Positions 17,444-42,226 are shown, counted from the whole stretch's first letter. The stretch is DNA of 63,416 bases, filler included, from Candidatus Woesearchaeota archaeon CG1_02_57_44 (GCA_001871415.1; 4 parts of 4 records of this genome joined end to end with filler, not necessarily neighbours in it); one strand, 5' to 3'. Notes: generated by a model not told the origin, from the letters alone. Translations and numbers: made by a program.

Positions 17444-17689
17444 CAGCAGGGAAGATTGGGACGGGGTAGCAAGCCAAAGGCAGCGCATTCTCCCAGCTTC
17501 GGCACTGTGCTTATCCCAAGCCTGGTTTTTACCAACCGTGGTCTCTCTGTTCTTGAAGCCATGGTCGTGCACCTCAAAGAAGAACGAGGCATGACCTACC
17601 ATGCGATAGCCGAACTGCTCAACCGTGACGACAGGACCATCTGGACCGTCTACAATCGCGCGTCAAAGAAACAGGGTGGTGCGCAATGA
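17441..17689 (+). CDS. Small helix-turn-helix DNA-binding protein
   Basis: LSVLEAMVVHLKEERGMTYHAIAELLNRDDRTIWTVYNRA is a clear HTH; its stop overlaps the giant gene start (ATGA). Confidence 0.8.
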   Translation: MQQGRLGRGSKPKAAHSPSFGTVLIPSLVFTNRGLSVLEAMVVHLKEERGMTYHAIAELLNRDDRTIWTVYNRASKKQGGAQ

Positions 17690-20600: not shown

Positions 20601-23600
20601 TGCCGTCGTAGCATTCTCCGTGCGTCAGCCCCGCCTGGGCATCATCCTGCTGTTCATCGCCCTTGGACTTGCGGGTCAGGGCCTGACAGGGCATGTCATC
20701 GCCACGCTCGAGCCTGGAAATGGCGGCTCCATTACCCTCGCGTTCCATGAGAATAACAGCATCCCTGTGGGGAGCCGCGTGGAGATATTGCTCGCCGACC
20801 AGACCGGCGTGCTGCAGCTGATAAACAAGAGCATCCTTGATTTCCAGGACCAGGTCAACGCGTCCTACGGTGAGGTCATAACCGATGGCTCACCCTGGGG
20901 TTTTGAGGACCATGTGTTCACGCCCGCAGATATCACCCTGCTGCTCAATGACTACCTTAACCTCAGCCTTCCACCAGGAATATACACTATTGCCATGGAA
21001 GCCTATTATAACAATGGCTCCTGGCGGCGCAGCCTGGCCAATGCCTCAGCGCCGTTCAGCATCGGCCTTGCCAAGGGCGCGGTAAGCACCCAGCCCGGAG
21101 CGCATCCGTTCTGGACGCCTGATCAAAATCCCGTGACGTGCGAACTCGCTGGCGATCATTGCGATGTCACCTGGGAAGTCAACGCGACAAGCAGAGGAAC
21201 GTATGAGTTCTACCTCATCGTCGCAGGAACCCAGGGGCAGAACGTGCAGGAAGGCGCGGCGTCTGTACTCAGCCAACGCGTCAATATCACGGTGTCGCGC
21301 ACAGCAGAGGATCATCTGCCCCCAACGATTCTTGACCTTGGAAATTCCACAGGCCAGGACATTCGCATCACCTGGCGAACTGATGAGCAAGCTACGACGA
21401 ACGTCAATTGGGGTCGCTCGACCGCCATGGGCTCCATCGAGCAGGGCACACGCGGCAAGATGCATGTATTCTCACTTCCCAGGACGGTCGGCCTGACATG
21501 GTATAATATCACCAGCTGTGATGACCAAAACAACTGCATAACCCTGGGACCATTCAGCGTCAACGCAAAGCCCCTGACCCGGCCTCAGGTCAGCCTGCCC
21601 CCGCAGGCCGAGCGCGCGCTGCAAAAAGACCAGAGTTTCGCGTATGAGGTGAGCTCAGACTCTGACCTGCAGGACTGCCGGCTGTATATCGACGGAAACC
21701 TGACAGAGCTTACCACAGAAGTGCGCAAGGGCTCTCGTCAGGTCCTGCGCACGACATTGCAGCCAGGCAGATACAACTGGAGCGTGTCCTGCCTGGATGC
21801 CGCTGGCATGGAAGCGAACACGAGCGGAGTAAGGACAATCTTCGCTCTGCAGGGCTTTGACGGTGAGACGACAGCGATAGCGGACGTGCCAACGCTTGAC
21901 TCCGTCTCAAATCTACGCCTGGAAAAACTGGGCAATGGTCGCGTACGATTCAAGGAGCCAGTCAATCTGAGCGAAGGACTTGATTTCGAAAGCATGGTGC
22001 ATCTGGAACACAACCGCATCGAAATCAACACCAGTGCAGCACCGGCACTGAATGTCTCGGCCGAGCTGACGCTCAAAGACGTGACATTCGCCAATCCGCT
22101 CATCCTTATGGACAACGCGCCCTGCCCGACAGACGTCTGCTCGCAGCCCTGGCTGATAGGCAATGACCTTTACTTCAATGTCTCGCACTTCACAACATTC
22201 AGCGCGACTGAGCAGACAAATCTCACCATCTGGTGGAGCAACAGCACGGACAAGTGGGGCGCAAGTCAGGTGACGTTCTATGCAAACTACACCAATGTGT
22301 CCAGCAGCCAACCCGTCCTGGGCGACGGTGTCTACTGTCAGGTGCGTGTCAATACCACTGGTGACTTTGGCGCATGGACCAACATGACCTGGGACGCATC
22401 CAACCTCTACTGGAGAAACACCCAGACGATCGATGTCGATGGGCAGGACCAGGTGCTCTGCGACGGCACGGCTACCGGGCATGCGCGCCTGAACGCGACC
22501 GACCGCTTCAACCTGACCGCGCAGGGCGGTGTGCAAAGCGGTGTCGCCCCCGTGGTCACGCTCATCCGCCCGGACAATGGCGCAGTCATCGCGAAGAACT
22601 ACACCTGGTTGAACTTCAGCGCATCAGACCCTGAGTCAGACGTCTATACGCTGCGCGTCTATGTCGGCAATGCAACGGACCCTATCCCCAATCGCCTGGT
22701 CTACATCAACAAGACGAACGCAGCGATCAGCGCCTTCAACTACAATCTGACGGCGTTGCCGATCCAGAATGGAACAGGCGGCCCTATCATGCTGCTGCAC
22801 TTTGACAACCTATCGGAGATGAAGGAGAACGGGACCGCAGTGTATGACTGGGCCAGCAAGAACGCGGTCTACGGCAGCTGCAACCAGAGCGGCTATGGGC
22901 TCATCTGCGGCACGTGGAACAACACCGGCAAGTTCGCCGGCAACTACGCGTTCAATGGGTCCAACCAAGCGTGGCTCTTGCCGCTCGCGTCCAACAGGAT
23001 GAACAATGTCAGCATCACCATCTGGGCCAACCTGGAGACGACCAGCCAGAAGGGCGCCTTTGTGAAAGTTGGCTCAGGCAACAATGGATACGGCATCGGC
23101 GTAGGAGGCGACAACTTTGATGGCACAGGAAATGACCTTATCGCCCTCTACGAGGGCGTCGCATGGTATGACTCCAATGTCAACATCGGCACGGGCTGGC
23201 ATCATATCGCCATGGTGCTCAACGCGACGGACATGCTGCAGCTATACATCGACGGGATTATCGCCGCGTCCTGGCAGACAGGAGGAGGCACCACCCCCAC
23301 CATGCAGATCCGCGCAGGGGGTTACACCGCGGACGGCCCGTATCTCCGCTTCTTCCAAGGCAGGCTCGATGAGTTCGCCATGTGGAACCGTACGCTCACA
23401 CCAGAGGAGATACGGCAGATGGCAAGAGCGCCGGCAGGCACCTACTACTGGCGGACCAACGCCACGGATACGACCGGCAATAGCAATACCTCCACGAGAA
23501 GCTTCGTCCTGGGAAGCACAGGAAGCAACGGCACAGGCACATGCCTCGCCTTGAACAATTGCGTGCTGGGTGACGCCTGCGACATCACCACGAGCTGCGA

Positions 23601-26600
23601 TCTCTACGGTCGCCTGAGATTCACCCGGTTCAACATCAGCAACAGCGCGACCGTCACGGTGCGGCCATATGACCTGCGCGGCTATGACCCCGCGACAGGT
23701 CTTGCCAATACGAGCATGGGTTGGAACTATACCGGCTTATTAGACATCGAGGCGCAGAGCATCATCATCGCGAGCGGAGCCACCCTGACCGCCAATGGCT
23801 CAGGCTATCCGCTCAATGCATCCAATACCGTCGGCCTCGGCCCGGGGGTAGGACAGTACTACAGCACGCAGACCACGGGAGGAGGCGCGGGCCATGGCGG
23901 CATCGGCGGCATCGGCGATCTCAACAATAAACTGGTCTCTACCGGAGGCAACAGCTATGGCCTCGCAGCGGCCCCCACGACCTTGGGCAGCTCAGGATCA
24001 GGCACCGGGAGCCAGCAGGGATCAGGCGGAGGAGCAATCAAGCTCAACGCCACGAGCGTGACCATCTCCGGCAGCGTCCAGGCATCCGGCCAGCCGGGCA
24101 TCGATCGCGCGTCTGGCGGGAGCGGAGGAAGCATCTGGATAGTGGCAGGCGCATTGACCGGAAGCGGCAGCCTCAATGCAAGCGGTGGCGAGAATCAGGC
24201 CAATGCCAACTACGGCGGCGGGGGCAGCGGAGGACGCATCGCAGTGCATACCTCATCCTATGCCTTTACCGGCAGCTACGTCGCGTATGGCGGACAGGGC
24301 GACAGCAACAGCCACGCAGGCCAGAACGGCACGGTCATCGTGCTCGACCCTGCGACCATGGATGTTTTGCTGCCGGGCACGTTCACCTTCAGCGCCAATG
24401 AAGGAATCAACCTATCCCTGCTGCCCAAGACCGACGGGGTCTATCAGTTCCGCAATCTCAATATCACGGGCACGGCTGTCGCGCTCTCCAACTGGACCAA
24501 CATGACCAATGGCAGGGGGCCCACTATCCTCACGAGCGGCAATACCACGATACTCGGCGCGCTGGTCGCGGACCAGCGGGGATACAGAGCCAGCGACACC
24601 AGCGCCAGCGACGGCTATGGCCCGGGGAGAGGTGTCTACTACAGCACCTGGGGGCGCGGCGGAGGCGCAGGCCACGCCGGATTCGGCGCTGCGGGCGACC
24701 GGGACAATGAGGTGCCATCCGCAGGAGGCAATATCTATGGCAGCGCCCTGGAGCCCACGCAGCCCGGCAGCTCCGGCGCAGGAGTCTCTGTGCATGTCAA
24801 CACCTACGCGGGCGGCGGTGGCGGCGTCATCCTGCTCAATGTGTCAGAGAGGCTGGTGTTGCAGGGATCGCTGAGCGCCAGCGGAGAGCCGGCGACGAGC
24901 AGCACCTACGGCGGCGGGTCCGGAGGAAGCATCTGGCTCATCGCCGACAGCATGGACGGCAATGGGAATATCACGGCAGCAGGAGGAAACGGCGGCGGAT
25001 CCAGCAGCTACGGAGGTCCCGGCGCAGGAGGACGCATCGCTATCCATTACACGACCCGCTATAATTTCTCCGGCCTGTTCAATACCAGCGCAGGCGCCGC
25101 GTACGCCAATACACGGGGCGCCATGAACGGCACGGTGCTCGTCATCCAGCGGTCGACCGGCAACGCCATATTGCCTGAACATTTCATCTTCGACCCTCTC
25201 AGCGGCATCAGCAAGACGCTCACGCCGAGCACAGACGGCACCTACTATTTTGGTGAGCTGAACATCTCCGGCGTTGCATGGGCATTGACCAACTGGACCA
25301 ACACGACCAATGGCAGAGGCCCGGTCATCATGGTCAGCGGCAACAGCACCCTCTTAGGCCGTCTGCTCTCCGATGGACTTGGCTACGGCAGGTATGACAC
25401 CAGCGCGAGCGATGGGTATGGTCCCGGTGGCGGCATGTACAGCAGCACCACCGGCAGGGGCGGCGGCGCTGGGCACGCAGGGTACGGTGGCGTGGGTGAC
25501 AAGGATAATGCCCTGACCACGCTCGGCGGGAACATCTACGGCACTCCCCTGGAGCCAACGCAACCCGGGAGCAGCGGCGGCGGAGTGCACACCCATGGAA
25601 ACTCGTACTCCGGGCGCGGGGGCGGCGCATTCATCCTCAACGTGACCGGCCGCCTTATCATGGATGGAGCGCTGGCCGCTGACGGCCAGTCCGCGACCAG
25701 TACCCAATATGGCGGCGGCGCGGGCGGCAGCATCTGGCTCATCGCAGACAGCGTGGATGGCCGGGGCACTATCACTGCCACAGGGGGCAGGGGCGGCGGA
25801 TCAACCAGCTATGGCGGATCAGGATCTGGTGGACGCATAGCCATCCACTACACCACGCGATACAACTTCACCGGCAGCTTCAACACCACCGCCAACCCGG
25901 GATATCCAAATACCGGAGGGGCCATGAACGGCACGGTGCTGGTCATCCAGCGCACGACAGCAGACGCTATCCTCCCCGAACATTTCCTCTTCGACGCACT
26001 CAGGGGCATCGATGTTACGCTCGCGCCCGCCACGGATGGAGAATACCATTTCGGCACCCTGAACATCACCGGTATCGCATGGGCCCTGCCGAACTGGACC
26101 AACCCGACCGACGGCAAAGGGCCTGCCATCATCTCGACGGGCGACGTGACCGTGACCGGCCAGCTGCTGGGCGACAGGACAGGATACTTCAATGCCACCA
26201 CCGCCGCAACCCATGGATACGGTCCTTCGCTCGCGGCCTATTACGTGACCAGTGGCAGGGGTGGGGGCGCCGGCCACGGCGGCTATGGCGGCAACGGCGA
26301 CACCAGCAATCCCACGGTCACCAAGGGCGGAAGCATGGTCGGCTCACCACTGCGTCCGGTGCAGCCGGGCAGCAGCGGAGCCGGTATCGGTGTGCACGGC
26401 TCAACCGCGGCAGGCAGAGGCGGAGGCGCGATAATCATCAATACCACCCAGACCCTGACGATGGCCGGCAACATCAGCATGACAGCGGCCAGCGCAGGGG
26501 CGAGTCAGTATGGCGGCGGAGCGGGCGGCAGCATCTGGCTCATTGCGGACAGCGTTGCCGGCAGCGGCATGCTGATGGCCTCTGGCGGAAACGGGGGAGC

Positions 26601-29600
26601 CAGCAGTGGCATGGGCGGCGGCGGCGCAGGAGGAAGGATAGCCATCCACTACGCCAGCTCCTATGGCTTCACCGGCACCTTCAACACCACCGGAGGCATC
26701 GCCAGCACGAATTCATGGGGCGGCGATAACGGCACGGTGATCGCCATCAATCCTGCGACAAGAGATGCGTTCCTGCCCGCTGACTTCATATTCTCTGCCA
26801 CCGACGGCTGGGATGACACGCTGCAGGAGGATACGACTGGGCGCTTCAGCTTCGGAGCGCTCACCCTCCGGGAGAACGCCACGGTCTGGTCATACGGCAA
26901 CTGGACCAACACGACCAATGGCCGCGGTGTCCGCATCTTCGCCTCCTCCATCGGTGTAGAGGACTACGCGCGGATGCTGGCAACAGGCCAGGGCTACAGG
27001 AATGAGACGACCGCCGCGGCGGAGGGACTGGGCCCCGGACGTGGAGGCTACCGGGGGACGAGCGGCGCTGGAGGCGGGGCAGGCCACGGCGCGATGGCGT
27101 TGTTTGGGGACACTGATTCCCGGCTGGAGTCACCAGGCGGCGCGATCTATGGCATCGCCATCGAGCCGACAGAGCTGGGCTCATCGGGAGGAGGCACCGG
27201 CATACACAGCACCAATGTGGCAGGCAGAGGCGGGGGCGCGTGGTACCTGAACGCCTCTGGCGCCATCGAGGTCAACGGGACCATCGCTGCCGACGGCCTC
27301 AATGGCACGTATCGCTATGGCGGCGGCGCGGGTGGAAGCGTCTGGCTCATTGCCCAGACCATCAACGGGACGGGCAACGTGACCGCGGACGGCGGCGGGT
27401 CTGTCGGCGACAGCAACTACGGCGGCGGAGGCGCAGGCGGTCGCATCGCCATCCATTACTCGTCCGGCGCAGCGCCCCTGGGCATTGGGGTCTCTGCTAC
27501 CGGCGGCATGGGAGGAGGCGCACGCCCCTCGGACAATGGCACTGTGCTCATCGTCAACAGGCAGACCAGCGACGCCATCATCGCGGGGCCCTTCAACCTG
27601 GAGGCAACCTCCGGCATAGACAGCGCGCTTGCCCCATCCACAGACGGCGTCTATCACTTCCATAACCTGAACGTCACGGGCTCCTCGGTGGTGGTCTTCA
27701 TGTCCAATTGGACCAACAGGACCAATGGGCGCGGTCCTGCGCTGGTCCTGTCGGGCAATCTCACTGTCGACAGTGCGGCGATGCTCACCGCGGACCGCCA
27801 CGGCTACTTCAACATGTCGACCGCCACCATGGCTTCAGCTTTCCCCGGCGGAGGCAACCGGTCAGGATCCGACGGGGGCGGCGGCGGCGCGCTGGGAGGC
27901 GTCGGTGGTGTGGGGTACACATCAGAAGGGAACTCCAATGGGGGTGAACCGCATGGCGATATCATCAGGCCGACCAGCCTCGGCGGTATGGGCGGCGGCA
28001 CTGCGGTGCATTCCTCGAATTATCTGGGCAGGGGCGCTGGCGCGATGCAGCTGAATGTCAGCGGCATCGCGAGGATCTCCGGCACCCTGAGCGCGTCAGG
28101 CCAGCACGCCACCTACCGCTACGGCGGCGGATCGGGCGGCAGCATATGGCTCATAGCAGGCTCGGTGCTGGGCTCGGGCATGATCAACGCCACCGGAGGC
28201 AATGGCGGCGGTGACACAGGCATCGGCGGAGGCGGCAGCGGCGGTCGCATCGCGATATACTCGTCCAACAATTCCTATACCGGTTCACTGCTCGTAGAGG
28301 GAGGTCTTGGCTCAGGCAACAGCTACCCCGGTCAGCGAGGCACCATCTACCTCTGCACCAACCTGTCAGGGCAATGCCCCGGAGGAGTCAGTCCCACGCT
28401 GAACTCATCATACGACATCAACACGACGGTCAATCTCAGCAGGACGATTACTGCATGGTCGAGCAGCAGCATGCTGTGGAATGATTCCTCATCCAACCTC
28501 AGCAATGTCGGCTACTACACGGTTGGCGGCCTGAGCGCCAGCAGCCCGTACCAGATCCTCAATAATTCCGACCTGCGCCTGCCGGTCACCACTGACGGTG
28601 GCGGAGCGTTGGCTACCTTCAACGTGTCGCTCGCCCTTGCCGCAAGCATCCAGGTGGAGCCAAAGCCCAATTCGGCGCCATGGGTGTCGATCACCGCTCC
28701 TGCCAACAACTCAGGGACGTCAAGCGCATCGGTCTTCTTCTCCTGCAACGCAACGGATGATACAAGCCTTGCCAACATCAGCCTGTACATATGGAACCGG
28801 ACAGGCCTTGTACATACCAATACGACTCCCATTGAAGGCGCAGGCAATGCGACCAACTGGACCGTGGCGCTGCCTGCCGCCGAGCTCTACACCTGGAACT
28901 GCCTCGGCCAGGACACGGGAAGCGCCCAGAACTTCTCCATCTATAACTACACCTTCCTGTTCCCGGGCAACATCACCGCGTCAGGCTTCACGGCGCCCTC
29001 CTCTGCGACCGTCGACACACTATTCAACGTCACCGCGAACATCACCTGCGCCGGCGGCTACTGCCATAACATCACACTCACCCTGCAGGACCTGAATGCC
29101 TCCACCTGGAACGCGTCATGGGCCTATCGCCACCAGGTCAATGTCTCGCTATCCTATGGCACAGGCCCCAGGAACTACACGGTGCGCCTGGACCTGAACG
29201 CAACCAGCATCGGCTCTACCTTCGACTGGTCTGACGCCTGCACTGACCTTCGCATACTCAACAGCACCATGGACGGCCACCTGCCCTACTACATCCAATC
29301 CTGCGACAGCTCGGCCCAGACGGCCGTTGTCTATGTGCGCGTCCCTGACAATCTCACGACGCAGGGCACGATCCTCAATCTCTACTACGGCAGCGGTAAT
29401 CCGGTCAATGTCTCGGACCTGAACGCCACCTTCGACACGCTTGGCAACTGGTATGAGCATTGGGCGTACAACGACACCGCGGACTGCAGCGGCCCCGAGA
29501 ACTGGACCAGGATACACTACGACCAGGGTCTCTGGCCGATCGCTGCCGATGTCCAGTCAGACACCTGGAGCGGGGACAACACGGATTACCGGCTGCGAAG

Positions 29601-31595
29601 GCCCATCTACCTGCCGACCGTCTCCGGCTCTGTCATCCACGCGGTCAGCGACGACGGCATCTGGGTCTACAGCGGCGACGGGCAGCTTGTCGGCAATGCC
29701 GGCGGGACCTCCTGCCACGCGGGCGGGACCTCCAACCAGGACTGGAACATCACGAAGAACCTGACCGTGGGCGTCAATGTCATCGGGCTGTGGTGCTCAG
29801 AGGCAGGCGGTGGCGAGAACTGCCAGGTCACGTCCTGGGATGTGCCGGGCGCCTATCGGATGCAGAACATCCCGACGCCACCGTCGGTGAGCTTCCTCGG
29901 TGCCACGGCGGAGGGCGCGGTCAGCTCTGAGACCACCCAGACACCGTCGTATCTCGTGCAGGGGCCCCGGGGGACCGACAATCCTGCCACCATAACCCTG
30001 GAGAGCGGGCAGGTCTACCAGGTCAACTGGACGCTCAACGCCTCTGGCAGCATCGGCGATGTCATGACCTACGCGGTGCTGGCCAACGTCACCCTGCTCC
30101 AGCAGGACGGCACCTACGCTGTCGCGACAGTCAGCACGCAGACAGCCAACGTATCGGCCCCTGTCCCGGACATATCGATCATGGGCCCTGGCGATCTGCG
30201 CGGATCAAACACCCCGAACGTCACGTTCTGGTACAATGTCTCAACAACAGCACCAAACAATTGCTCGCTCTTCATCAACGGCATCAGGAACGCGACCACG
30301 GACAGCCCAAGCATAGACACGCCACTCTCCTGGTCTGTGATCAACCTACCGGTCGGTCCACTCAATTGGAGCGTCAACTGCACCGCTGACACTGAAGCCA
30401 ACAGCAGCGTCTTTTCGCTCACCATCTTCAACCAGCCGCATACCTACGCCGGCCAGACCACCAACCTCAGCCAGGTGCAGGATATACGCGCGGTCGGCAA
30501 CCTGACCGCCGAGGTCCCCCAGACCGCATTGATCAAGTGGAACGAGCCGGTCAATCTCATCAATGGCACCAACTTCGCGCTGCAGGTCAATATGTCGCCC
30601 AACCAGGTCGCGCTGAACAGCTCAGGTATCCTGCTCCTCAACACCTCCGCGCAGCTGACGCTCTTTAACCTGACCTTCGCGTCGGCGGCGATATTCCACG
30701 ACGGACAGGCCTGCACCGCGACGACGTGCAGTGACAAGATCTATTCGGGAGGCAATCTCACCTTCAATGTCACCGGGTTCTCCAGCTACAGCGCGGCCGA
30801 GGAGGCCAACCTCACCATCTGGGACGATACTGACACGCTGGACATCAACCGCAACCGCAACATCAGCTTCTATGCCAACTACACCAACATCACGAGCGGA
30901 GCGTTCATCAACGCTTCAGGGACCTACTGCGAGATCGCGTTCAACCTCACTGGCGATTGGAGCTCCTATGAGAAGATGAACATGAGCACACTCGTCGCGC
31001 TCTACAACTACACCCGGCAATTCACGCAGACCGGTGTCTATTCGTACAATATCCTCTGCAATGCCAGCGTCATGGGGCACGCCATCCTCAACGCGACCGA
31101 CGGCCTCGCGGTCAATAACACGGCACCATGGGTCGTCCTGCACCTGCCTGTCAATGGTAGCAATGTCACGCTCTCGCATGTGCGGCTTAATATCACGGCT
31201 AATGATACGGATGGTGATGTCTATCTGTTGCAGGTGTGGGCCGGCAATGCTTCGCCCTATGGGCTTGTCTTTCAGAACGTGACCGGGGGCCTGCAGAATA
31301 TCACGTACAACTTGACGGCGGTGCCGGTGGCGCCGGGTGAGGATGATCTGGTGCTTCTCTTGCATTTTGACAACTTGTCCAACCTTGGAGAGAATGGCAC
31401 ACGCATGGTGGATTCCAGCGGGAAGGGCAACAACGCCACCTGCGTGCAGACGGGGTATGGCCTGCACTGCCCAGCCTACAATAATGCGAGCAAGTTTGCG
31501 GGTGGTTATGCGTTTAATGGCATCAATCAGTCTTTGGTTGTTGCTGATGATGATACGTTGAATATGAGCAGGCTTTCGGTGGCTGCGTGGGTGTG
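17686..31595 (+). CDS. Giant (>4630 aa, 3'-truncated) membrane-anchored surface protein/adhesin with Ig-like, LamG, six Gly-rich repeats and a DUF2341-like domain
   Basis: Uninterrupted 13.9-kb ORF. TMs at ~18520-18580 and ~20560-20700. LamG motifs (LLHFD, WHHIA, FQGRLDEFAMWNRTLT) at ~22790-23430 and from ~31345. Six GG(S/A)GGS(I/V)W repeats. WAYRHQVNV...VYVRVP...LYYG at ~29100-29400. Very dense N-x-S/T sequons. Confidence 0.9.
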
Positions 31596-31695
31596 NNNNN
31601 NNNNNNNNNNNNNNNNNNNNNNNNNNNNNNNNNNNNNNNTTAATTAATTAANNNNNNNNNNNNNNNNNNNNNNNNNNNNNNNNNNNNNNNNNNNN
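31596..31695. other. Artificial contig-joining linker
   Basis: N44-TTAATTAATTAA-N44. Confidence 0.98.
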
Positions 31696-31712
31696 CGAGA
31701 GGTAAGGGCGCG

Positions 31713-33808: not shown

Positions 33809-35155
33809 ATGCTCCGCATCATCGCCCTTGGCGGCTACGCTGAGATGGGCCGCAACATGACTGCTGTCTTCTGGAACGACCAGGGTGTCATCCTGGACTG
33901 TGGTCTGCACCTGGAAAACTACATCCGGCTCACTGAGGAAGATGACCTGAAGGTCATGAGCACCAAGCTTCTACAGCAGGAAGGTGCCATCGCTGATCTG
34001 ACTCCCCTTGGCAAGGACCGAAAGAAGATACTCGCCATCGTCCCCAGCCACGCGCACCTGGACCACATCGGCGGCCTGCCGTATCTGGAATCCAAGTTCG
34101 ACGCGCCCATCATCTGCACGCCCTTCACCGCTGCGGTATTGCGGGGCATGGTCGGGGACAATAAAAGTGGAAGGGGAGGGAACGGGCGAGGTGAGCTTCG
34201 CAATGACATCATCACGGTGCAGCCGGGCGCAAGCCACAAGCTGACAGAAGACATCACCATCGAGTTCATCCGCGCCACGCACAGCACGCCGCATACAGCG
34301 ACCATCGCCATCCACACGCCTGACGGGGTCGTCATCTACGCCAATGACTTCAAGTTCGACCTGCACCCCACGTTGGGCCCGAAGCCCGATTTCGCACGGC
34401 TCAAGGCGCTGGGCAAGGCAGGCGTCAAGGCCTTCATCTGCGAGTCCACCTACAGCAATCTGGAGCAGCGTATGCCCTCGGAGAGCATCGCCAAGCAGAT
34501 GCTCGAAGACATCCTGCTCGGCCTTGACCATAAGAACAAGGCCATCATCGTCACCACGTTCAGCAGCCACATCGCGCGCCTCCGGGCCATCTGCGACTGC
34601 GCCAAGAAGATACACCGCACGCCGCTCATCGTGGGCAGATCGCTCTCACGCTACATCGCGGCAGCAGAGGAGTGCGGCATCACGAGCTTCAAGGACGCGG
34701 AAGTAGTGCGCTACTCCAGCAAGGCAGCGCGGCGGCTTCGCAAGGTGCTCGCAGAAGGCAAGGAGAAGTATGTCCTGGTGGTCACCGGGCATCAGGGCGA
34801 GCCGCGGGCAATACTGTCCAGGATGGTCTCTGAGCAGATAGACTGGCGCTTTGACCCGAATGACTGCGTCATCTTTAGCTGCAAGGTCATCCCCACACCA
34901 ACCAATGAAGCCAACCGGGCAAGGCTCGAATCCAGGCTACGGGATTTCAATGTCCGCTTCTTCAAAGACATCCATGTATCAGGACACGCCGCCCGCGAAG
35001 ACCTGCGTGAGATGCTCACCATGCTCAAGCCGGAGCACCTGTTCGCCAGCCATGGCGATAAGAAGATGCAGGCAGGGCTTGCCAGCCTAGCGGCAGAAGA
35101 GCATATGCAAAAAGTGCACCTCCTGGCCAATGGTGGTCAGATGGAGCTCGCATAG
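33809..35155 (+). CDS. rnj: Ribonuclease J (beta-CASP metallo-beta-lactamase)
   Basis: GGYAEMGRNMTA, SHAHLDHIG, THS, DFKFD, TTFSSHIARL, HVSGHA. Confidence 0.95.
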   Translation: MLRIIALGGYAEMGRNMTAVFWNDQGVILDCGLHLENYIRLTEEDDLKVMSTKLLQQEGAIADLTPLGKDRKKILAIVPSHAHLDHIGGLPYLESKFDAPIICTPFTAAVLRGMVGDNKSGRGGNGRGELRNDIITVQPGASHKLTEDITIEFIRATHSTPHTATIAIHTPDGVVIYANDFKFDLHPTLGPKPDFARLKALGKAGVKAFICESTYSNLEQRMPSESIAKQMLEDILLGLDHKNKAIIVTTFSSHIARLRAICDCAKKIHRTPLIVGRSLSRYIAAAEECGITSFKDAEVVRYSSKAARRLRKVLAEGKEKYVLVVTGHQGEPRAILSRMVSEQIDWRFDPNDCVIFSCKVIPTPTNEANRARLESRLRDFNVRFFKDIHVSGHAAREDLREMLTMLKPEHLFASHGDKKMQAGLASLAAEEHMQKVHLLANGGQMELA

Positions 35156-35190
35156 AAGATTTTATAAAACCAGTATCATTCCACCGAGGC

Positions 35191-35937
35191 ATGAAACTCA
35201 CTCTTGCGGAGCCCTCTCTGCTCAAGGATAGCGTCTCTCTGATATCAGAACTGGTCAATGAGGCCAGTATCAAGGTCACTAAGGAAGGCCTTGAGGTCAT
35301 CGCCATGGACCCCGCAAATGTGGCCATGGTGGTCTTCAAGCTGCTCTCCCCCACATTCTCCGAGTACAATATCAAGTCTGATACCACCCTTGGCGTCAAC
35401 ATGGCCAACTTCAAGCAGATACTGCGCAGGGCAAGGCCCAGCGATGTGCTCACGCTTGAGATGGCTGACAAGGCGCGCCTGCAGATAAAGCTCAAGGGCG
35501 CGTCCACCCGGACATTCTCGCTTCCTATCCTTGAGATGGGCGATGCTGAGCAGAAGGTCCCTGACCTGAAGTTTCCGGTGGTCATCAAGACCATGGCCTC
35601 GGTGCTCTCCGATGCCATTGATGACGCTGACGTGGTCGCAGAGGCGGTCAGCTTCATCGCGCAGGAGAAGAAGTTCACCATCTCAGCCGAGGGCGACCTG
35701 TCTGACGCCACGGTCGAGATACCTGCCAGCGAGCAGACCAAGATAACCATGGAATCCGACAAGCCGCTCAAGAGCAAGTACTCGCTCGAATACCTCAAGA
35801 AGATGGCCGGCGGCTCCAAGCTCGCGGACGAGGTCACTATCAGCTTTAACAAGGACTACCCGCTGCGCCTGGACTATCTCTCTCTCAATAAGCTGCAGCT
35901 CAGCTTCATCCTCGCTCCGAGGGTGGAGCATGACTAG
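35191..35937 (+). CDS. pcn: PCNA / DNA polymerase sliding clamp
   Basis: AMDPANVAMV, YSLEYLKKM, DYPL and C-terminal FILAPRVE. Confidence 0.97.
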   Translation: MKLTLAEPSLLKDSVSLISELVNEASIKVTKEGLEVIAMDPANVAMVVFKLLSPTFSEYNIKSDTTLGVNMANFKQILRRARPSDVLTLEMADKARLQIKLKGASTRTFSLPILEMGDAEQKVPDLKFPVVIKTMASVLSDAIDDADVVAEAVSFIAQEKKFTISAEGDLSDATVEIPASEQTKITMESDKPLKSKYSLEYLKKMAGGSKLADEVTISFNKDYPLRLDYLSLNKLQLSFILAPRVEHD

Positions 35938-36035
35938 GCGGGGAGCGCGCTTTGTCCTGATTCTTCTCGTATCTTCTGTGTTATTCTCCTGTTTATACAC
36001 ATGTTTTTTATCTCTCACCTTTATTCCTCCGGCCT

Positions 36036-37412
36036 ATGCCTATCGAGGACTATGAGCCCATCGTACAGCAGTGCGCGCGGCGTTATGCTAGGGATCCTGA
36101 ACTGAGAAGCGAGTATGCACAGCTTGTCCGCATTGCCATCTGGCTCGCGTTGGAGAAGGATCCTTCGCTTCCAGAGAATCATGCAATTGTCATCGGCCGT
36201 AGTGCCATCTTTCATATGCTCGAGAAGCAAGAGAGACAGAAGCGGACACCGCCAGGAGGGGCTCTGCTTGAGCTGCAGGCGCCCCTCTTCGAGACAGGGG
36301 GGCTTACTGTCGAGGATTCTGTGGGTAGGTCAGATTGTCCGGGGCATGGACTTCTGCTCGCAGAAATGCACGAGCAGCTTCGTTCGCGATTCGGCAGGTA
36401 CTATTCTCAGGGTATTGCGCAGTCAGGGCTGCGTGGCATCCCGCAGGCCATCGTGCGCACAACCCTCGAGCAGGTCGCGGGCATCGACCCCCACAATACG
36501 GACTCCTACGCAAATTTCCAATTCTTTGCTGAACATGGTCTGCATCCATTGCTTCGAGCGTTCTTCCGTGGCAGCTACCATGTCGCATTGTCTGCATGCT
36601 ATCCTGATTTTTATGTCCCCTGGATGGGTAGTAATGTCCCTCCTGATTACTGGTCAGGACGTTATTCCATTCAGCATGCGACAAAAGCCATGCAATGGTT
36701 TTGCGATCTTCACGACCTCACCACTGTTGGACAGGCACGCTCTGTCGTCACTATGTCCAACCTCAAAGCCTCGGGTCTTGGAGGACTCGCTGCCCATTAT
36801 CATGAAAATACCGCCCGTCTCATCCAGCTTGTGTTCTCAGAGGCCAGACCTTGGCGTCTCAAGCATGTCCCTCATGGATTTTGGGATTCAGATGACAACC
36901 GCTTTGATGCGTTGGATGATTTTCTGCAGCATGTTGGCTGCGGTTCCATTGTCGGGTTGACCCCTGAAGCAACCTATGACAAAGAACTTAAGAAACGCGT
37001 CTCCCGTCGCACCTTGACAGGTTTTCACCTCTCCAACCTGCTGGCCTCCCAATATGACGGCCGGCAATACGATATGTTCCATGATATTTTCCCTGGGCAG
37101 ATTCTTCCTTGGACACTGGCGCAAGTACGCATCTCTTCCTGGCCGGATGCACAAGAAGTCGGCGTCAATGCCATGCGCTGGGTGGTTGAGGATTACCTTG
37201 GCCTATCTTGCGAGGAATTGCCAGCTGTGTTGACTGATCGCCTAATGAAAGCGCTTGGTTTCTCTGGCATCATGCGAAACCCTGTCTTCGGGTTCGAGAA
37301 TTCCCCTTTTCGTATAGCCGACGCGCTCTATCCCGGCACATTTACACCTGATGATTTCAGCCGCTTTCGGCCATGCAGCAGGATACCTGACTGCGGTTAT
37401 CTCTCTTCTTGA
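36036..37412 (+). CDS. Sigma70 region 2/3-like N-terminal domain fused to DUF4046-like repeats (paralogue A)
   Basis: YEPIVQQCARRY...EYAQLVRIAIWLALEK...KR...LELQAPL...LTVEDSVG, then repeated PW...VPxx(Y/F)W units. Codons more T-rich than the neighbours. Confidence 0.7.
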   Translation: MPIEDYEPIVQQCARRYARDPELRSEYAQLVRIAIWLALEKDPSLPENHAIVIGRSAIFHMLEKQERQKRTPPGGALLELQAPLFETGGLTVEDSVGRSDCPGHGLLLAEMHEQLRSRFGRYYSQGIAQSGLRGIPQAIVRTTLEQVAGIDPHNTDSYANFQFFAEHGLHPLLRAFFRGSYHVALSACYPDFYVPWMGSNVPPDYWSGRYSIQHATKAMQWFCDLHDLTTVGQARSVVTMSNLKASGLGGLAAHYHENTARLIQLVFSEARPWRLKHVPHGFWDSDDNRFDALDDFLQHVGCGSIVGLTPEATYDKELKKRVSRRTLTGFHLSNLLASQYDGRQYDMFHDIFPGQILPWTLAQVRISSWPDAQEVGVNAMRWVVEDYLGLSCEELPAVLTDRLMKALGFSGIMRNPVFGFENSPFRIADALYPGTFTPDDFSRFRPCSRIPDCGYLSS

Positions 37413-37428
37413 TGCTCTATAGTTGAAG

Positions 37429-37592
37429 GGCTCTCTCCTGAATCTCGTTTGACATATGCCAGCAGCGGGCTTGGGCAGCGTTCCCACCAGTGACACATTG
37501 ACATCCCCGGAGGGGGCATCCCCCTGTCAATGCGCAAAATCCAACACATCAGCCTTCGCAATTGCTGCTGGCTGGACTCTTAGGACAGAGCC
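37429..37592. mobile_element. 164-bp MITE-like element with GGCTCT(C/G)TCCT/AGGACAGAGCC terminal inverted repeats, copy A
   Basis: Closely similar to 49574-49736; nested stems GCCAGCAGC/GCTGCTGGC and TTGACA/TGTCAA. Confidence 0.8.
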
Positions 37593-37790
37593 GATCCGCA
37601 CATATCGGACAATTCAAGTGTACGATAAAAACGTACGACTGAAAGCCTGACTTTTTGTCACTGTTTGGAGTGTCGACAAATTGTCGATGTTTCCAGGGTT
37701 AGAAATATGAGTCGTACCCATTTTGGGTACAGTTGAAAAGGAGGGGGACAAATTGTCCCTATGAACGTAATGCGGGTTATTTGATCCGCC
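37592..37790 (+). repeat. Array of 6-7 different short AT-cored palindromes with ~26-bp period
   Basis: Palindrome centres at 37602, 37628, 37654, 37680 (exact 26-bp steps), then 37722, 37752 and ~37780; semi-conserved 3' tail YRNYTS(R/C)A in units 1-5. Confidence 0.75.
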
Positions 37791-38101
37791 TCAGAATCCC
37801 TGTGACAAATCCTTCTGTGTCTTTTATTCTACCTCTCACACAGTAATTGACAGAATTAGATAGGATACATAGTTTGTTCGCCTCTATTGTACAAATGTCA
37901 TCAAATTTCGAAAAACATTTTTACATTAGCCCTTTTCAACGCTTAAAGCCTTGAATAAGACTAAGCAGGCGCAGGATGAGTGAGGGCACGTCTGTATCGC
38001 CCACTCATTCCTCTCTTTGCTCCTCATAGCGGGTCTTGTCTCCTCTCTTGCTGATATTTTCAAAAGTTTTTTTATGTATCTTTTTTTACTGTTGCTTTCG
38101 T

Positions 38102-39490
38102 ATGCAGGTCGAAGACTATGAACCCATAGCGCAGCAGTGCGCCAGGCGTTACGCCTCAGATGATGCTGAACGCGAAGAGCTGGCGCAGCTTGCGCGTATC
38201 GGCATCTGGTTGGCTCTGGAAAACGATGCCTCGTTGCCAAGAGCGCATGCGGTCACTGTAGGGCTCGACGCTATCCGTGCCAGTTTCCGGAAGCAGAGCG
38301 CTAGGATGAGGACGCCTCCTGGCGGAACGCTTCTTGAATTGCAGGAGCCGATATCTGATGATGGCTCGCTGACGCTTGAGGACGTTGTCGGCAAGGATGA
38401 TGGTCCTGGTCAGGATGAGCTGCTCGCTGAGTTGCACGTCCAGCTGCGCTCTAGGTTCTGCGCAAGGTATATGATGAATATCAAGCAATCTGGGCTCAGG
38501 GGTATTCCGCAGGCCATCGTCCGCGCGACCATCGAGCAGGTAGCAGGGCTTTCTCCTGACGACACCAATGCCTATGCGAACAGCCAGTTCTTCATCGACC
38601 ATCATCTGCGTCCCTTGCTGAAGATATTCTTCAATGACAGTTATCATGATGCACTGAGCGCTGCATATCCTGATACTTATGTCCCCTGGATGGGCAAGCA
38701 AGTGCCTGACGGCTACTGGTCTGGACGAGGTGGCAAAGCGCACGCGAGGAAAGCAATGCGATGGTTCTGTAACGCGAAAGGCATCAAGTCCACGGAAGAT
38801 GTACGCGATGTGTCTATCCAGGATTTTGTTGATGAAGGCCTCGGTGGGCTCATCTTTCATTACCGCTACAACATCAATCGCGTCATGCAACTGGTCTTTC
38901 CAGAGAGCAGGCCCTGGCGGCTCAAGAGCGTTCCTGCTGGCTTCTGGGATACACTGGACAACCGCAGAGACGCCCTCGATGATTTCCTTCAGCACATCGG
39001 CTGTGGCTCTATCATCGGTCTCACGCCTGAGGAGACCTATGACCGCGGTCTTAAAAAGAGAGTATCAGGGTCAGCTCTCAAGGATTTTCATCTTTCTTAC
39101 CTTCTGCTGTACCAATACAGGGGCAGGCAATACAACTTATTTCACGACCACTTCCCTGAGCAGATCCTGCCATGGACCTTGGCGAATGTGCGACTGGCAA
39201 ATTGGCCTGATGCCGTAGAGGTGGGGGTCAATGCGATGCGATGGGCTCTGGAGGACTACCTCGTGGTCACTGTCGAAGAAGTCCCTCAGGTCCTTACTAC
39301 GCGGCTGATACGTGGGCTTGGTTTGACCGGTATCTTCACGAATCAGGTATTCGGGTTCGATAGTTCTCCATTCAAGGTCGCGGATACGCTCTATCCGGGG
39401 ATTTTCACGCCGTATGACTTCCGAAGAAAGCGGCCAGGCATACGAGTGCCTGACTGCGGGTATCTGCACATGATACAGCACGAGTCATGA
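38102..39490 (+). CDS. Sigma70 region 2/3-like plus DUF4046-like repeat protein (paralogue B)
   Basis: Colinear with paralogue A over the full length (MQVEDYEPIAQQCARRY...LELQEPISDDGSLTLEDVVG...PDCGYL). Start placed at ATG 38102 by alignment. Confidence 0.7.
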   Translation: MQVEDYEPIAQQCARRYASDDAEREELAQLARIGIWLALENDASLPRAHAVTVGLDAIRASFRKQSARMRTPPGGTLLELQEPISDDGSLTLEDVVGKDDGPGQDELLAELHVQLRSRFCARYMMNIKQSGLRGIPQAIVRATIEQVAGLSPDDTNAYANSQFFIDHHLRPLLKIFFNDSYHDALSAAYPDTYVPWMGKQVPDGYWSGRGGKAHARKAMRWFCNAKGIKSTEDVRDVSIQDFVDEGLGGLIFHYRYNINRVMQLVFPESRPWRLKSVPAGFWDTLDNRRDALDDFLQHIGCGSIIGLTPEETYDRGLKKRVSGSALKDFHLSYLLLYQYRGRQYNLFHDHFPEQILPWTLANVRLANWPDAVEVGVNAMRWALEDYLVVTVEEVPQVLTTRLIRGLGLTGIFTNQVFGFDSSPFKVADTLYPGIFTPYDFRRKRPGIRVPDCGYLHMIQHES

Positions 39491-39547
39491 TCCGCTCCTG
39501 CTCGTCCATACACACTTTTATAAGCCAAAAGCAATGCCTCAAGACGT

Positions 39548-42226
39548 ATGACCGACTATTACGCCATGAGCGCTGACGCGGCCATGCGTGACCTTGGCAG
39601 CACGCCCTCCGGACTGAGCCACGGCGAGGCGCTGCGCAGGCTTGGCGAATACGGGCCAAACGCGCTCAGGCGCGGCAGGCGCACCAGCATGCTCGCGCTC
39701 TTCTTTCAGCAGTTTTCCAATGCGCTGAGCATCCTGCTCGTGTTCGCGGGTGTCCTGTCATTGTTCCTCGGCGAGCACGTGGAAAGCGTCGCCATCTTCG
39801 TCATACTGCTCCTGAATGCCCTCCTTGGTTTTGTGCAGGAATACCGCGCTGAGCGCGCCATGGAGAAGCTTCAGGAGCTGTCCGCCAAGAGCGCGCGGGT
39901 GCTGCGCGACGGCAAGGAACATAAGATAGAAGCCGCACATGTTGTCCCTGGCGATCTGCTCATCCTGGAGGCCGGAGATATCGTCCCCGCGGACGCAAGA
40001 CTCATCTCTGTCGCGAGCATGCAGATAGACGAAGCAGCACTCACTGGAGAATCCGTTCCCAGCAAGAAGATCATCCTGCCCTATCCGGAGGGCACCAGCA
40101 TCACGGATCAGGAGAACATGGCGTTCATGGGGACCAGCGTCACCTATGGCAAAGGCAAGGCGATCGTCACGGCCACAGGCATGAGCACGGAGTTCGGCAA
40201 GATAGCAGAGTCGCTGGAAGACGAGGACGTCCCGCAGACGCCATTGCAGAAGAAATTCCAGGCGCTCGCCGGGCAGATAGGAAAGCTCGCGGTCGTGCTC
40301 ATCATCATCGTGCTCATCGCGGGCACCCTGCACAAGACGGTCAGCTTCCTTGACATGCTGCTCTTCGCGCTGGTGCTGGCGGTAGCCACCATCCCTGTCG
40401 CCTTGCCCACCATCGTCACCATCGGGCTATCGCTCGGAGCCAAACGCCTCGCAAAGAAGAATCTATTGGTCAAGCGATTGCCCGCAGCCGAGAGCCTCGG
40501 CGCGGCGACCATCATCGTCTCTGACAAGACCGGCACCATCACCAAGAACCAGATGACCGTGACCACCATCTATGATGGACATAAGAGCATCTCGGTGACG
40601 GGCACCGGGTATGTTCCTGAAGGGACATTCTCCTCACCTGCTCCTGAGATACTGCTTCGTATCAGCATGCTCTGCAACAACGCCAAGCTTACGGAATTGC
40701 AGGGCAAGCATGGCATCATCGGCGATCCCACTGAAGGCGCGCTCATCGTGCTGGCTCGCAAAGCAGGTCTTGATGATGGAATCTACGAACAGTATCCGCA
40801 GGAGCGGGAACTTCCCTTCGACTCTGATCGCAAGATGATGAGTGTCATCTGCCGGCAGGGCAAGACGCTTGAGGCGTATGTCAAAGGCGCGCCTGATCTG
40901 CTCTTGGCTGCCTGCGATCGCATATGGGACAAGGGCTCGGTTCGGAAGATGACTGATGCTGACCGCAAGCGCATCCTTGACGCCAACCAGCGCATGGGCG
41001 AGCAGGCGCTGCGCGTGCTCGGGTTCGCCTATCGCCCCCTGCATGGGCACAGGACGGCACACCGAGAGGGCGCGGAGGCAGGAGACGACGAATTCACTCC
41101 TGCCAGCGTCGAGCGCGAGCTCATCTTCGTAGGCCTCGCGGGCATGATAGACCCTCCGCGCGACGAGGTCGCAGGCGCCATCGCAAAATGCCACAGCGCG
41201 GGCATCAGGGTCATGGTGGTCACGGGTGATCATTCTGTGACAGCCAAGGCCGTCGGCGAGCGCATCGGGCTCATGCAGGAAGGTGACGCAGTCATCACAG
41301 GCGAGGACGTCGAGCGCATGAGTGACCAGGAACTGCGGCATGCGCTGGCGTCGGTACGCATCATCGCCCGCGCCATGCCCTTGCAGAAGCTTCGCATCGT
41401 CACCGCGCTTCAGCAGGAAGGGCACATCGTGGCCATGACCGGCGACGGGGTCAATGACGCGCCCGCGCTCAAGAAGGCGGACATCGGCATCGCCATGGGC
41501 ATCACCGGCACCGACGTGGCCAAGGAAGTCGCCAAGGCGGTGCTGGTGGACGATAACTTCGCCACCATCGTCAATGCCATCGAAGAAGGCAGGGCAGTCT
41601 ATGACAAGATGATACTCTCCGCGCGCTACCTGCTATCGTGCAACAGCGGCGAGATCGGAGTGGTTCTGTTCTCCATCCTGCTAGGCATGCCCTTGCCATT
41701 GATACCCCTGCAGGTGCTCATGATTAACCTGTTGACTGATACGTTCCCTGCCATGGGGCTTGGTATGGAGAAAGGAGAAGATGATATCATGCGTCACAAG
41801 CCGCGTGATCCCCATGCACCGCCGCTCTCGCGCCCGACGCTGTATTCTATCCTATTCTTCGGGCTCATCATGGCGACGGGCACCTTGCTCGTGTTCAACG
41901 CCTACAGGTCTGACCTGACGCTCGCGCGCACCATGGCGTTCACCACGCTCGTGCTCTTCCAGATGTTCGCGGTCATCTCCGGCAGGACATTGCATCCGTC
42001 GCTCGCGCGGCTCAATCCGTTCACCAATCTCTGGCTCACGGGGGCTGTAGTGTTGTCTGTTGGCCTGCAGGTGCTGGTCGTGTACCTGGCGCCATTGCAG
42101 CAGTTGTTTGGCACGGTAGCGCTCAGCTCTCAGCATTGGCTCGTCATCGTCAGCGTGAGCAGCATCGGGCTCTTGCTCATGGAGCTGAGCAAATTCGCGC
42201 TGGGAAGGAGCGAAGCGAGGGCGTGA
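39548..42226 (+). CDS. P-type ATPase, P2A (Ca2+-type) subfamily
   Basis: TGES, DKTGT phosphorylation site, KGAPD, DPPR, TGDGVNDAPALKKADIG. TM4 reads PVAL instead of PEGL. Confidence 0.95.
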   Translation: MTDYYAMSADAAMRDLGSTPSGLSHGEALRRLGEYGPNALRRGRRTSMLALFFQQFSNALSILLVFAGVLSLFLGEHVESVAIFVILLLNALLGFVQEYRAERAMEKLQELSAKSARVLRDGKEHKIEAAHVVPGDLLILEAGDIVPADARLISVASMQIDEAALTGESVPSKKIILPYPEGTSITDQENMAFMGTSVTYGKGKAIVTATGMSTEFGKIAESLEDEDVPQTPLQKKFQALAGQIGKLAVVLIIIVLIAGTLHKTVSFLDMLLFALVLAVATIPVALPTIVTIGLSLGAKRLAKKNLLVKRLPAAESLGAATIIVSDKTGTITKNQMTVTTIYDGHKSISVTGTGYVPEGTFSSPAPEILLRISMLCNNAKLTELQGKHGIIGDPTEGALIVLARKAGLDDGIYEQYPQERELPFDSDRKMMSVICRQGKTLEAYVKGAPDLLLAACDRIWDKGSVRKMTDADRKRILDANQRMGEQALRVLGFAYRPLHGHRTAHREGAEAGDDEFTPASVERELIFVGLAGMIDPPRDEVAGAIAKCHSAGIRVMVVTGDHSVTAKAVGERIGLMQEGDAVITGEDVERMSDQELRHALASVRIIARAMPLQKLRIVTALQQEGHIVAMTGDGVNDAPALKKADIGIAMGITGTDVAKEVAKAVLVDDNFATIVNAIEEGRAVYDKMILSARYLLSCNSGEIGVVLFSILLGMPLPLIPLQVLMINLLTDTFPAMGLGMEKGEDDIMRHKPRDPHAPPLSRPTLYSILFFGLIMATGTLLVFNAYRSDLTLARTMAFTTLVLFQMFAVISGRTLHPSLARLNPFTNLWLTGAVVLSVGLQVLVVYLAPLQQLFGTVALSSQHWLVIVSVSSIGLLLMELSKFALGRSEARA

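Follow-up and report, generated by a model that had tools for sequence, protein, structure and literature searches.

An intergenic array of short palindromic units in the genome of Candidatus Woesearchaeota archaeon CG1_02_57_44 (positions 37,594 to 37,790) consists of six clear units and one weak unit of a dyad-symmetric module of Bro-N genes. Positions are those of the window, which is the whole stretch of DNA that was analyzed: 63,416 nucleotides, filler included, from four records of this genome joined end to end. By sequence comparison, units 1 to 6 each match a different natural class of the Bro-N dyad, and the units either derive from the dyads of Bro-N genes or are constrained like them. 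The case for the array rests on this sequence content, not on the density of palindromes. Our evidence base is one array from one population, analyzed in silico. The array lies on contig C49 (window positions 31,696 to 53,999) of a 1.53-Mb assembly (G000) with 77 contigs that is rated 82% complete, and DNA from this genome was found in groundwater and aquifer metagenome runs.

The first-pass annotation had described seven palindromic units with different palindromes and a semi-conserved tail. All seven palindromes are present as described. Unit 1 (inner 15-mer at 37,595 to 37,609; TCCG and CGGA around 7 nt, centered at 37,602) reads SAHIG, and the nearest natural class, SAKIG, matches at 13 of 15 positions. 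Unit 2 (37,621 to 37,635; GTACG and CGTAC around 7 nt, centered at 37,628) reads YDKNV. It matches the dyad of class YDKIV at 14/15, and its inner 15-mer is one base short of a palindrome with 6-bp arms. Unit 3 (37,647 to 37,661; TGAC and GTCA around 5 nt, centered at 37,654) reads LTFCH and is nearest to protein class VTFCH (4/5 at the protein level); at the DNA level, it matches the natural classes at 11–12 of 15 positions. Unit 4 is a perfect dyad (37,673 to 37,687; TCGACAA and TTGTCGA around 1 nt, centered at 37,680) that reads STNCR, and its opposite strand reads STICR, which matches a natural dyad at 15/15. Unit 5 is also perfect (37,714 to 37,730; GTACCCA and TGGGTAC around 3 nt, centered at 37,722) and has both outer arms. 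The pentapeptide that it would encode, YPFWV, exists naturally (P0181), its best match at the DNA level (13/15) is to another class, and the region is 92% identical over 25 nt to a Bro-N gene of another genome (G026). The third perfect dyad, unit 6 (37,745 to 37,759; GGGACAA and TTGTCCC around 1 nt, centered at 37,752), reads GTNCP and is the same as the dyad in this genome's own Bro-N gene (G000:C32:561-575). Across units 1, 2, 4, 5, and 6, the inner 15-mers match a natural DNA class at 13–15 of 15 positions. Unit 7 (37,772 to 37,789) is a weak dyad (6/8) that was missed by the covariance model described below, and its membership is doubtful.

The palindromes do vary in sequence, but cores are shared by units 2 and 5, by units 3, 4, and 6, and by units 1 and 7. 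The tail is real as well, but it is actually the outer arm of a ~29-bp dyad, so the orientation of the units is ambiguous (the two strands match about equally). Symmetry is partly lost in units 1–3 (5–10 of 16 mirrored positions), whereas units 4–6 have perfect inner dyads. As had been reported, the centers of the first four units are exactly 26 bp apart. This period is the sum of a 15-nt inner dyad and an 11-nt junction, and the junction resembles the right arm of one class fused with the left arm of the next. The flanks of the units are more decayed than the cores. The flanks of the units have no homology outside the dyad, or ~10 nt of it at most. The array is intergenic, with stop codons in all frames and a 26-bp period, and contains copies of the module rather than a gene; its sequence was found nowhere else in the genome. 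A 7-mer, GATCCGC, forms a direct repeat that brackets the array (37,593 to 37,599 and 37,784 to 37,790) and has 110 plus-strand copies in the genome.

To what extent do the palindromes themselves exceed chance? We compared positions 37,592 to 37,790 to 5,000 dinucleotide shuffles. Three or more palindromes with 7-bp arms were found in just 1 of the 5,000 shuffles, and three or more with 6-bp arms were found in 0.6% of them. On the other hand, at least four palindromes with 5-bp arms occurred in 8% of shuffles, and at least 11 with 4-bp arms occurred in 4.8%. So the expectation that shuffled sequence would lack such palindromes was borne out for the longest arms and not for the shortest: as bare palindromes, only units 4–6 exceed chance, and those with 4–5-bp arms are near chance. 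Also, 18 loci across the genome have at least three non-overlapping palindromes with 7-bp arms within 200 nt, so the density of palindromes is not exceptional by itself. (Some clusters of three such palindromes, each spanning 98 nt, lie at a constant offset from contig ends, at 119–216, for instance on C9, C37, C49, C52, C63, C64, C66, and C74. These are probably another family of palindromic repeats that breaks the assembly.)

The sequences of the units are much more distinctive. The motif GAC[AT]5GTC has five copies in 1.53 Mb, of which three are within the array, and both of the genome's copies of GTAC[CG]N7[CG]GTAC are within the array. The 11-mer core that is shared by units 4 and 6 has a single additional copy in the genome, at C32:563, and this position lies within the sole Bro-N gene of the assembly (C32:381-1226). 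That gene is a 281-amino-acid open reading frame with a match to PF02498 (E = 2.9e-9, above the family cut-off), and it is outside the window, as the first-pass annotation had implied in noting that the window has no such gene. The codons for its GTNCP are identical to the 15-mer of unit 6. The exact 15-mer occurs only in the array and in this open reading frame, and a chance match to a 15-mer is expected ~0.0014 times in 1.53 Mb. The stretch shared by the array and the gene is ~29 nt at unit 6, with the plus strand of the window being sense-like, and no other part of any Bro-N gene is left at the array. The Bro-N gene lies in an A+T-rich, single-gene island, and the adjoining open reading frames resemble ribosomal proteins by eye. 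Closely upstream of the island are two tandem copies of a 120-nt G+C-rich repeat (C32:1-204, L024).

We also scanned both strands of the whole genome with 60 natural modules, using gapless identity over 36 nt. Excluding self matches, 14 places in the genome reached 24/36, and six of these correspond to units 2, 3, 4, and 5, all within ~200 bases. With the outer arms included in this way, units 2–5 score 24–27 of 36: unit 2 scores 24 on the plus strand and 26 on the minus strand, unit 3 scores 24, and unit 5 scores 27 on either strand. A covariance model of the module hit only the array in the window, and only the Bro-N gene and the array in the genome. Unit 5 gave the best match and was the only unit hit at full length (22.7 bits, E = 0.003), and units 4 and 6 were hit in the core only.

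The Bro-N family is large. More than 7,998 relatives were scored, and the best 120 of these are 78–98% identical. Their labels place them in several archaeal phyla and, in one case, in a proteobacterium, and DinD and antirepressor appear among their names. The family is present in 192 of the 401 genomes that we sampled from the order, with up to seven matches per genome. (The nearest genomes in our collection are related at the level of "same order" only, and all are small, at 0.6–2.1 Mb.) Among the best 120 homologs, as read by eye, GTNCP is kept in 109. The first-pass annotation had proposed that the units, if translated, resemble a short hypervariable segment of Bro-N proteins. This was correct: natural variants of the segment include SEKIGQLK, YDKIVQLK, VTNCH.LK, STNCRQLK, YPFWVRLK, and GTNCP. 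It had also guessed that the segment would itself be encoded by a palindrome. We analyzed the DNA of 89 Bro-N genes from the order (including two from G209 and G315, on which no claim rests). Every one of them has a palindrome at these codons, and its perfect arms are 4–13 bp long. Five to nine of nine mirrored positions are paired, and at least seven are paired in 78 of the 89 genes. The center of the dyad is the middle base of a codon in 72/89 genes, and the outer arms are of the type TTGAAC.. / ..GTTGAA.

To see how far the pairing extends, we aligned 57 of the 82 distinct 41-mers from Bro-N genes without gaps. The alignment leaves out 14 sequences from a class that is centered one base earlier in the codon, 3 that were mis-centered, and 8 near-duplicates. 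Across the alignment, 83.9% of cells are paired, as compared to 60.3% if shuffled or 33–43% (about 35%) if the partner is slid. Changes on both sides account for 140 cells, versus 53 in shuffled alignments (0 of 500 shuffles). The dyad extends ~14 positions each way, or ~29 bp in total, and G-U pairs are nearly absent (6 cells). Synonymous sites covary too: the glutamate codon GAA occurs with the leucine codon TTG, and GAG with CTG; similarly, the leucine codon CTG occurs with the glutamine codon CAG, and TTG with CAA. Pairing that is limited to Watson-Crick pairs, together with the covariation of synonymous sites, implies selection at the level of DNA. Selection on the protein could not give this pattern, and selection on RNA would tolerate G-U pairs, so the constraint appears to be on double-stranded (or hairpinned) DNA. 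We conclude from these covariation patterns that selection on the DNA itself maintains the dyad of Bro-N genes.

The effect of the dyad is visible in the proteins. Among 150 representatives, clustered at 50% identity, the hypervariable pentapeptide has mirrored pairs of residues (G..P, V..H, S..R, Y..V, S..G, and T..C), which are those expected from reverse-complementary codons. To relate the variants to the history of the genes, we removed the segment from 86 genes and built a tree from the remainder (FastTree on 117 columns, weakly resolved). The 26 classes require 29 changes on this tree, versus ~60 if shuffled. The classes are nearly monophyletic; VTNCH, VTNCN, and one STFCV are found in more than one clade of this weakly resolved tree. 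In 15 genomes with at least two sampled copies, none of the 21 pairs share a class, versus 1.8 expected, which is not significant and is subject to biased sampling.

A second family has a coding dyad as well, in a similar position, with variable arms and near the start of the conserved domain. We found it at L160:387-426 (G331), where the segment reads TIRNFRIV, and at L161:418-457 (G023), where it reads TVSKMEIV. The open reading frame at L160 matches RhuM in Pfam; the shorter one at L161 is similar by eye and does not have a Pfam match. Because these open reading frames also carry a coding dyad, the phenomenon seems to reach beyond Bro-N. Full-text literature searches, with coverage that stops at subscription journals, turned up neither an array like this one nor any report of Bro-N or RhuM genes with a coding dyad.

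The array lies in a 690-bp gap between two tandem paralogs on the plus strand, and genes for PCNA and an RNase J-type protein are closely upstream of the region. The upstream flanking gene (36,036 to 37,412) encodes 458 amino acids, the downstream one (38,102 to 39,490) encodes 462 amino acids counting from the ATG at 38,102, and the two products are 63% identical. Both have a weak N-terminal match to Sigma70_r2 (sigma-70 region 2-like), which is the sole match for the upstream protein. The flanking-gene family is rare: it has 4 clusters among 5.8 billion proteins (with a precomputed label of PF13255) and 7 loci in species genomes. Homologs of the local proteins are labelled Woesearchaeota or Nanoarchaeota. 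The array is absent from 7 loci with homologs of the flanking gene, so it is not tied to that gene family. Given the nearby PCNA and a broad minimum in GC skew, we considered a replication origin, and we dropped this idea because there are no repeated origin boxes. Elsewhere in the window, on a different contig from the array's, positions 17,686 to 31,647 form a single open reading frame of 4,653 amino acids.

Within the gap, a MITE-like repeat is followed by the array and then by a promoter-like block. The MITE-like repeat (37,429 to 37,593; 165 bp with 11-bp terminal inverted repeats) abuts the array and has eight more copies, full or partial, elsewhere in the genome, at 88–95% identity (two on C40 and one each on C53, C29, C74, C25, C76, and at C49:17879). 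Six of the other copies have target duplications of 8–9 bp, two of them imperfect. The copy that abuts the array lacks one, suggesting that this site was rearranged afterwards.

The promoter-like block (37,823 to 37,964) has BRE/TATA-like boxes on both strands. This ~140-nt block is conserved at 79% identity in G018 and G361, at 70% in G279, and in part in G260, so that it is found in 5 of the 401 genomes of the order, counting G000, and it spans different families. The loci with the block include L033, L041, L042, L043, and L143; the last of these is a metagenome contig with the block at 93% identity and a gene attached. In G018 and G279, the block is directly upstream of a gene for ~500 amino acids with no Pfam family, and the contig from G361 stops at the block. 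A homolog of this gene was not found in G000, and the block in G000 looks like a remnant of another mobile gene. We checked if the array could be the decayed 5' end of such a gene, and there is no homology. A metagenome scan with a pattern from the conserved block identified two identical copies of the locus (L150 and L154), the copy with the block and its gene (L143), and 12 unrelated sequences. A scan for consensus promoters and terminators gave matches at the level of shuffled sequence.

The first-pass annotation had raised the possibility that units are gained, lost, or swapped between samples. Instead, the array is identical in contigs from four DNA runs and in two metagenome records, although contigs drop rare variants. 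No joints or variants within the array were seen in the contigs from the four DNA runs. One 199-nt contig from another sample, at a depth of 2, is a possible diverged copy of the array in which unit 6 is degraded.

The annotation had also anticipated homologs of the units, both in frame in Bro-N genes and in other intergenic arrays. The in-frame dyads exist, but we found no second array. The flanks and promoters of 30 Bro-N loci contain no array and no repeated dyad, and five whole genomes with multiple copies of Bro-N contain no clustered matches to the module. Since none of the 30 promoters has a further copy of the dyad, classical autoregulation is not evident. Of ten low-scoring matches that we inspected, four are in Bro-N genes, two are in open reading frames of the second family, and four are noise-like. 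A scan of viral contigs with the pattern of unit 5 gave two matches, which is about the chance estimate, and neither is in a Bro-N gene. One IMG/VR contig, L134, has the inner dyad of unit 5 twice, and a degenerate third copy, within 80 nt of non-coding sequence at about 1,440–1,560; because the number of matches is at the chance level, these dyads may be unrelated to the array.

What might bind such a dyad? Bro-N domains are described as DNA-binding. The AF2 model of the Bro-N protein is confident (pLDDT of 90.9), and its best structural matches are chains of DdrC (E = 1.5e-5, TM of 0.39–0.50), from entries whose titles describe a full-length dimer and a DNA-binding protein. A search of the PDB by sequence did not find a relative. 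The predicted homodimer scored 0.72, versus 0.00 for the best control; at least 71% of contacts are common to the runs, and the partner has a pLDDT of 80 or more. Of 30 proteins whose structures were solved as pairs of one chain, 20 reached a score of 0.72; of 23 that were solved as single chains, 1 did. This score may reflect likeness to the solved DdrC dimer rather than being independent evidence. Residues 61–65 are not among the listed residues of the predicted interface. Overall, a dimeric DNA binder is a plausible role for the Bro-N protein, judging from these models.

We tentatively favor the view that Bro-N-type proteins of several classes bind the array as dimers, with the units serving as a panel of operator-like sites. 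The array packs together six, or perhaps seven, copies of the ~29-bp dyad-symmetric module that lies within the coding sequence of Bro-N (DinD-like) genes in DPANN archaea. The dyad, with its conserved outer arms, variable triplet, and A/T-rich center, has the look of a site for a symmetric dimer, and we infer that it is bound by one, most simply by the Bro-N protein. The panel would bind the resident Bro-N protein as well as those arriving on mobile elements, and would titrate or sense them. Binding might sequester these proteins, regulate promoters on the array's right-hand side, or have some other effect. Every step in this proposal beyond the DNA-level dyad is an inference. Several observations argue against an operator panel: there is a single array, units 1–3 are partly asymmetric, unit 7 is doubtful, unit 6 is degraded in the possible diverged copy, and the surroundings resemble debris from mobile elements, given that the MITE lacks a target duplication and the promoter block has lost its gene. 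A more elaborate version, which we consider a long shot, is that the gene dyad is a private operator, or "address," that also spells the hypervariable loop, and that the array is a host-held panel of six addresses for resident and invading Bro-N. Each lineage's lock and key would then be a pair in the same nucleotides.

The main rival, which we favor only slightly less, is that the array is a recombination scar without a function of its own, or in other words, a fossil record of Bro-N-carrying mobile DNAs that recombined at the outer arms of their dyads. Each event, whether by microhomology or by an unknown site-specific enzyme, would leave an inner dyad and one shared arm, in keeping with the 26-bp period and with junctions that look like the fused outer arms of successive classes. 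Because the gene classes to which the units belong are old and differ from one unit to the next, the units are unlikely to have diverged in place. The other mobile debris in the neighborhood, the decay of the flanks relative to the cores, the imperfection of units 1–3, and the direct repeat that brackets the array also fit a scar. However, no tyrosine-family recombinase was found in the assembly, which is incomplete, and a scar does not readily explain why nothing else of a Bro-N gene survives at the array, why perfect 15-nt dyads are kept in three units, or why there is no second example in the genomes that we searched. It seems improbable that the array acts instead as RNA. In this scenario, it would be transcribed, most likely leftward from the promoter-like block, to give a structured small RNA whose units pair with Bro-N mRNAs at the dyad and that is an antisense regulator or a sponge. 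In three other genomes, the block immediately precedes a gene on the minus strand, so leftward transcription toward the array would be expected here, and because the plus strand is sense-like to Bro-N at unit 6, a minus-strand RNA would be antisense. Also, the minus strand has two sites with a hairpin followed by T's, and both strands have better fold energies than shuffled sequences do (z = -3.4 and -2.4). But the near-absence of G-U pairs from the gene dyads points to DNA, the units are not in a consistent orientation, and the promoter was assigned from a reading of the consensus alone. Furthermore, Rfam covariance models have no match in positions 35,000 to 40,000, even with E values up to 1.

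The first-pass annotation had suggested that the array is a library of donor cassettes. If so, these would be silent cassettes that rewrite the hypervariable segment of Bro-N by gene conversion. The units are variant copies of exactly that segment, and the few classes that appear in more than one clade would be consistent with switching. We now think that a donor library is highly unlikely, because the classes follow the gene tree and the array is invariant in the samples that were checked. The strong retention of GTNCP by close homologs also argues against this, as do the short homology beyond the dyad and the failure to find a reverse transcriptase or a tyrosine recombinase in the 82%-complete assembly. 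Either of the annotation's other two suggestions, a decoy panel of operators or a record of sequential acquisition, may be correct. As for the possibility that the hairpins are clustered by chance, or that they serve the flanking genes as ordinary terminators or regulatory elements and have nothing to do with Bro-N, the 18 similarly dense loci in the genome and the near-chance symmetry of units 1–3 would allow for it. Set against these are the rarity of the motifs, the 15-mer that unit 6 shares with the Bro-N gene, the way in which matches to the module and to its covariance model concentrate in the array, and the lack of such a region at seven homologs of the flanking genes. Given these sequence comparisons, this explanation is already very unlikely, and we give it hardly any credence.

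Few genes are shared as widely among the DPANN archaea as the Bro-N (DinD-like) genes. What is new here is a dyad, maintained at the DNA level, at one fixed site in the coding sequence of these genes, with many discrete classes. The intergenic collection of six classes is a first hint as to the interaction partners of the dyads. If the dyads are addresses that are bound by proteins, then the family would provide a natural set of orthogonal protein-DNA pairs and would reveal a novel way in which selfish genes and their hosts interact. A panel of addresses, if that is what the array is, would track a mobile gene family in a sequence-specific way that does not depend on CRISPR. If the array is a scar, then it points to an unknown recombination reaction at the dyads.

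It is useful to compare the array to known systems. The first-pass annotation had called it an "inverse CRISPR" array. Like CRISPR arrays, it has regularly spaced short units that resemble sequences from mobile elements. Unlike in CRISPR arrays, the units are palindromic and there are no conserved repeats between them (only one 11-mer occurs twice), and Pfam searches of ten neighboring open reading frames did not identify any cas genes. So, the term is just a figure of speech. The array is also reminiscent of the attC sites of integrons: both have tandem palindromic sites whose symmetry is kept while the sequence varies, and the array's junctions look like fused arms. However, attC sites are far longer than the units of the array, and the array has a period of 26 bp with no cassette genes between the sites. 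The tyrosine recombinase family (PF00589) was not found in our 82%-complete assembly, but was present in 14/14 control genomes.

The array does not resemble a diversity-generating retroelement, as it shares only ~29 nt with the gene; again in the 82%-complete assembly, reverse transcriptases (PF00078) were not found. Silent cassette loci such as pilS, vls, and the tprK donor sites serve antigenic variation. The array resembles these loci in having short variant copies of a hypervariable segment that are kept outside of the gene. It differs from them in lacking flanking homology, in that close relatives do not show switching, and in that the target would be an intracellular protein of the DNA-binding type. 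Like the array, REP/BIME elements and MITEs are palindromic, short, and intergenic, and there is a true MITE next to the array. The array itself, however, has a single copy in the genome and is made of dissimilar units, whereas the adjoining 165-bp element is present in multiple copies.

Clusters of operators or decoys likewise have several dyad sites close together, in intergenic DNA and beside promoter-like sequence, and the Bro-N protein, as the candidate binder, has a predicted dimeric form. The array is unusual in that each site is of a different specificity class and copies the coding dyad of a mobile family, and in this case, binding is putative.

For coding sequences, the nearest analogs in print are the coding palindromes of Nematomorpha and the template switching that maintains hairpins. 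Mitochondrial genes of Nematomorpha contain coding palindromes, which are long perfect repeats (PMC6649704), and template switching keeps hairpins paired (PMC8794818). As in Bro-N genes, these are inverted repeats within coding sequence whose arms change together (PMC6649704, PMC8794818). Compared to the Nematomorpha palindromes (PMC6649704), the Bro-N dyad is distinguished by its length of ~29 bp, its one fixed site in a huge prokaryotic family, its many classes, and the intergenic array.
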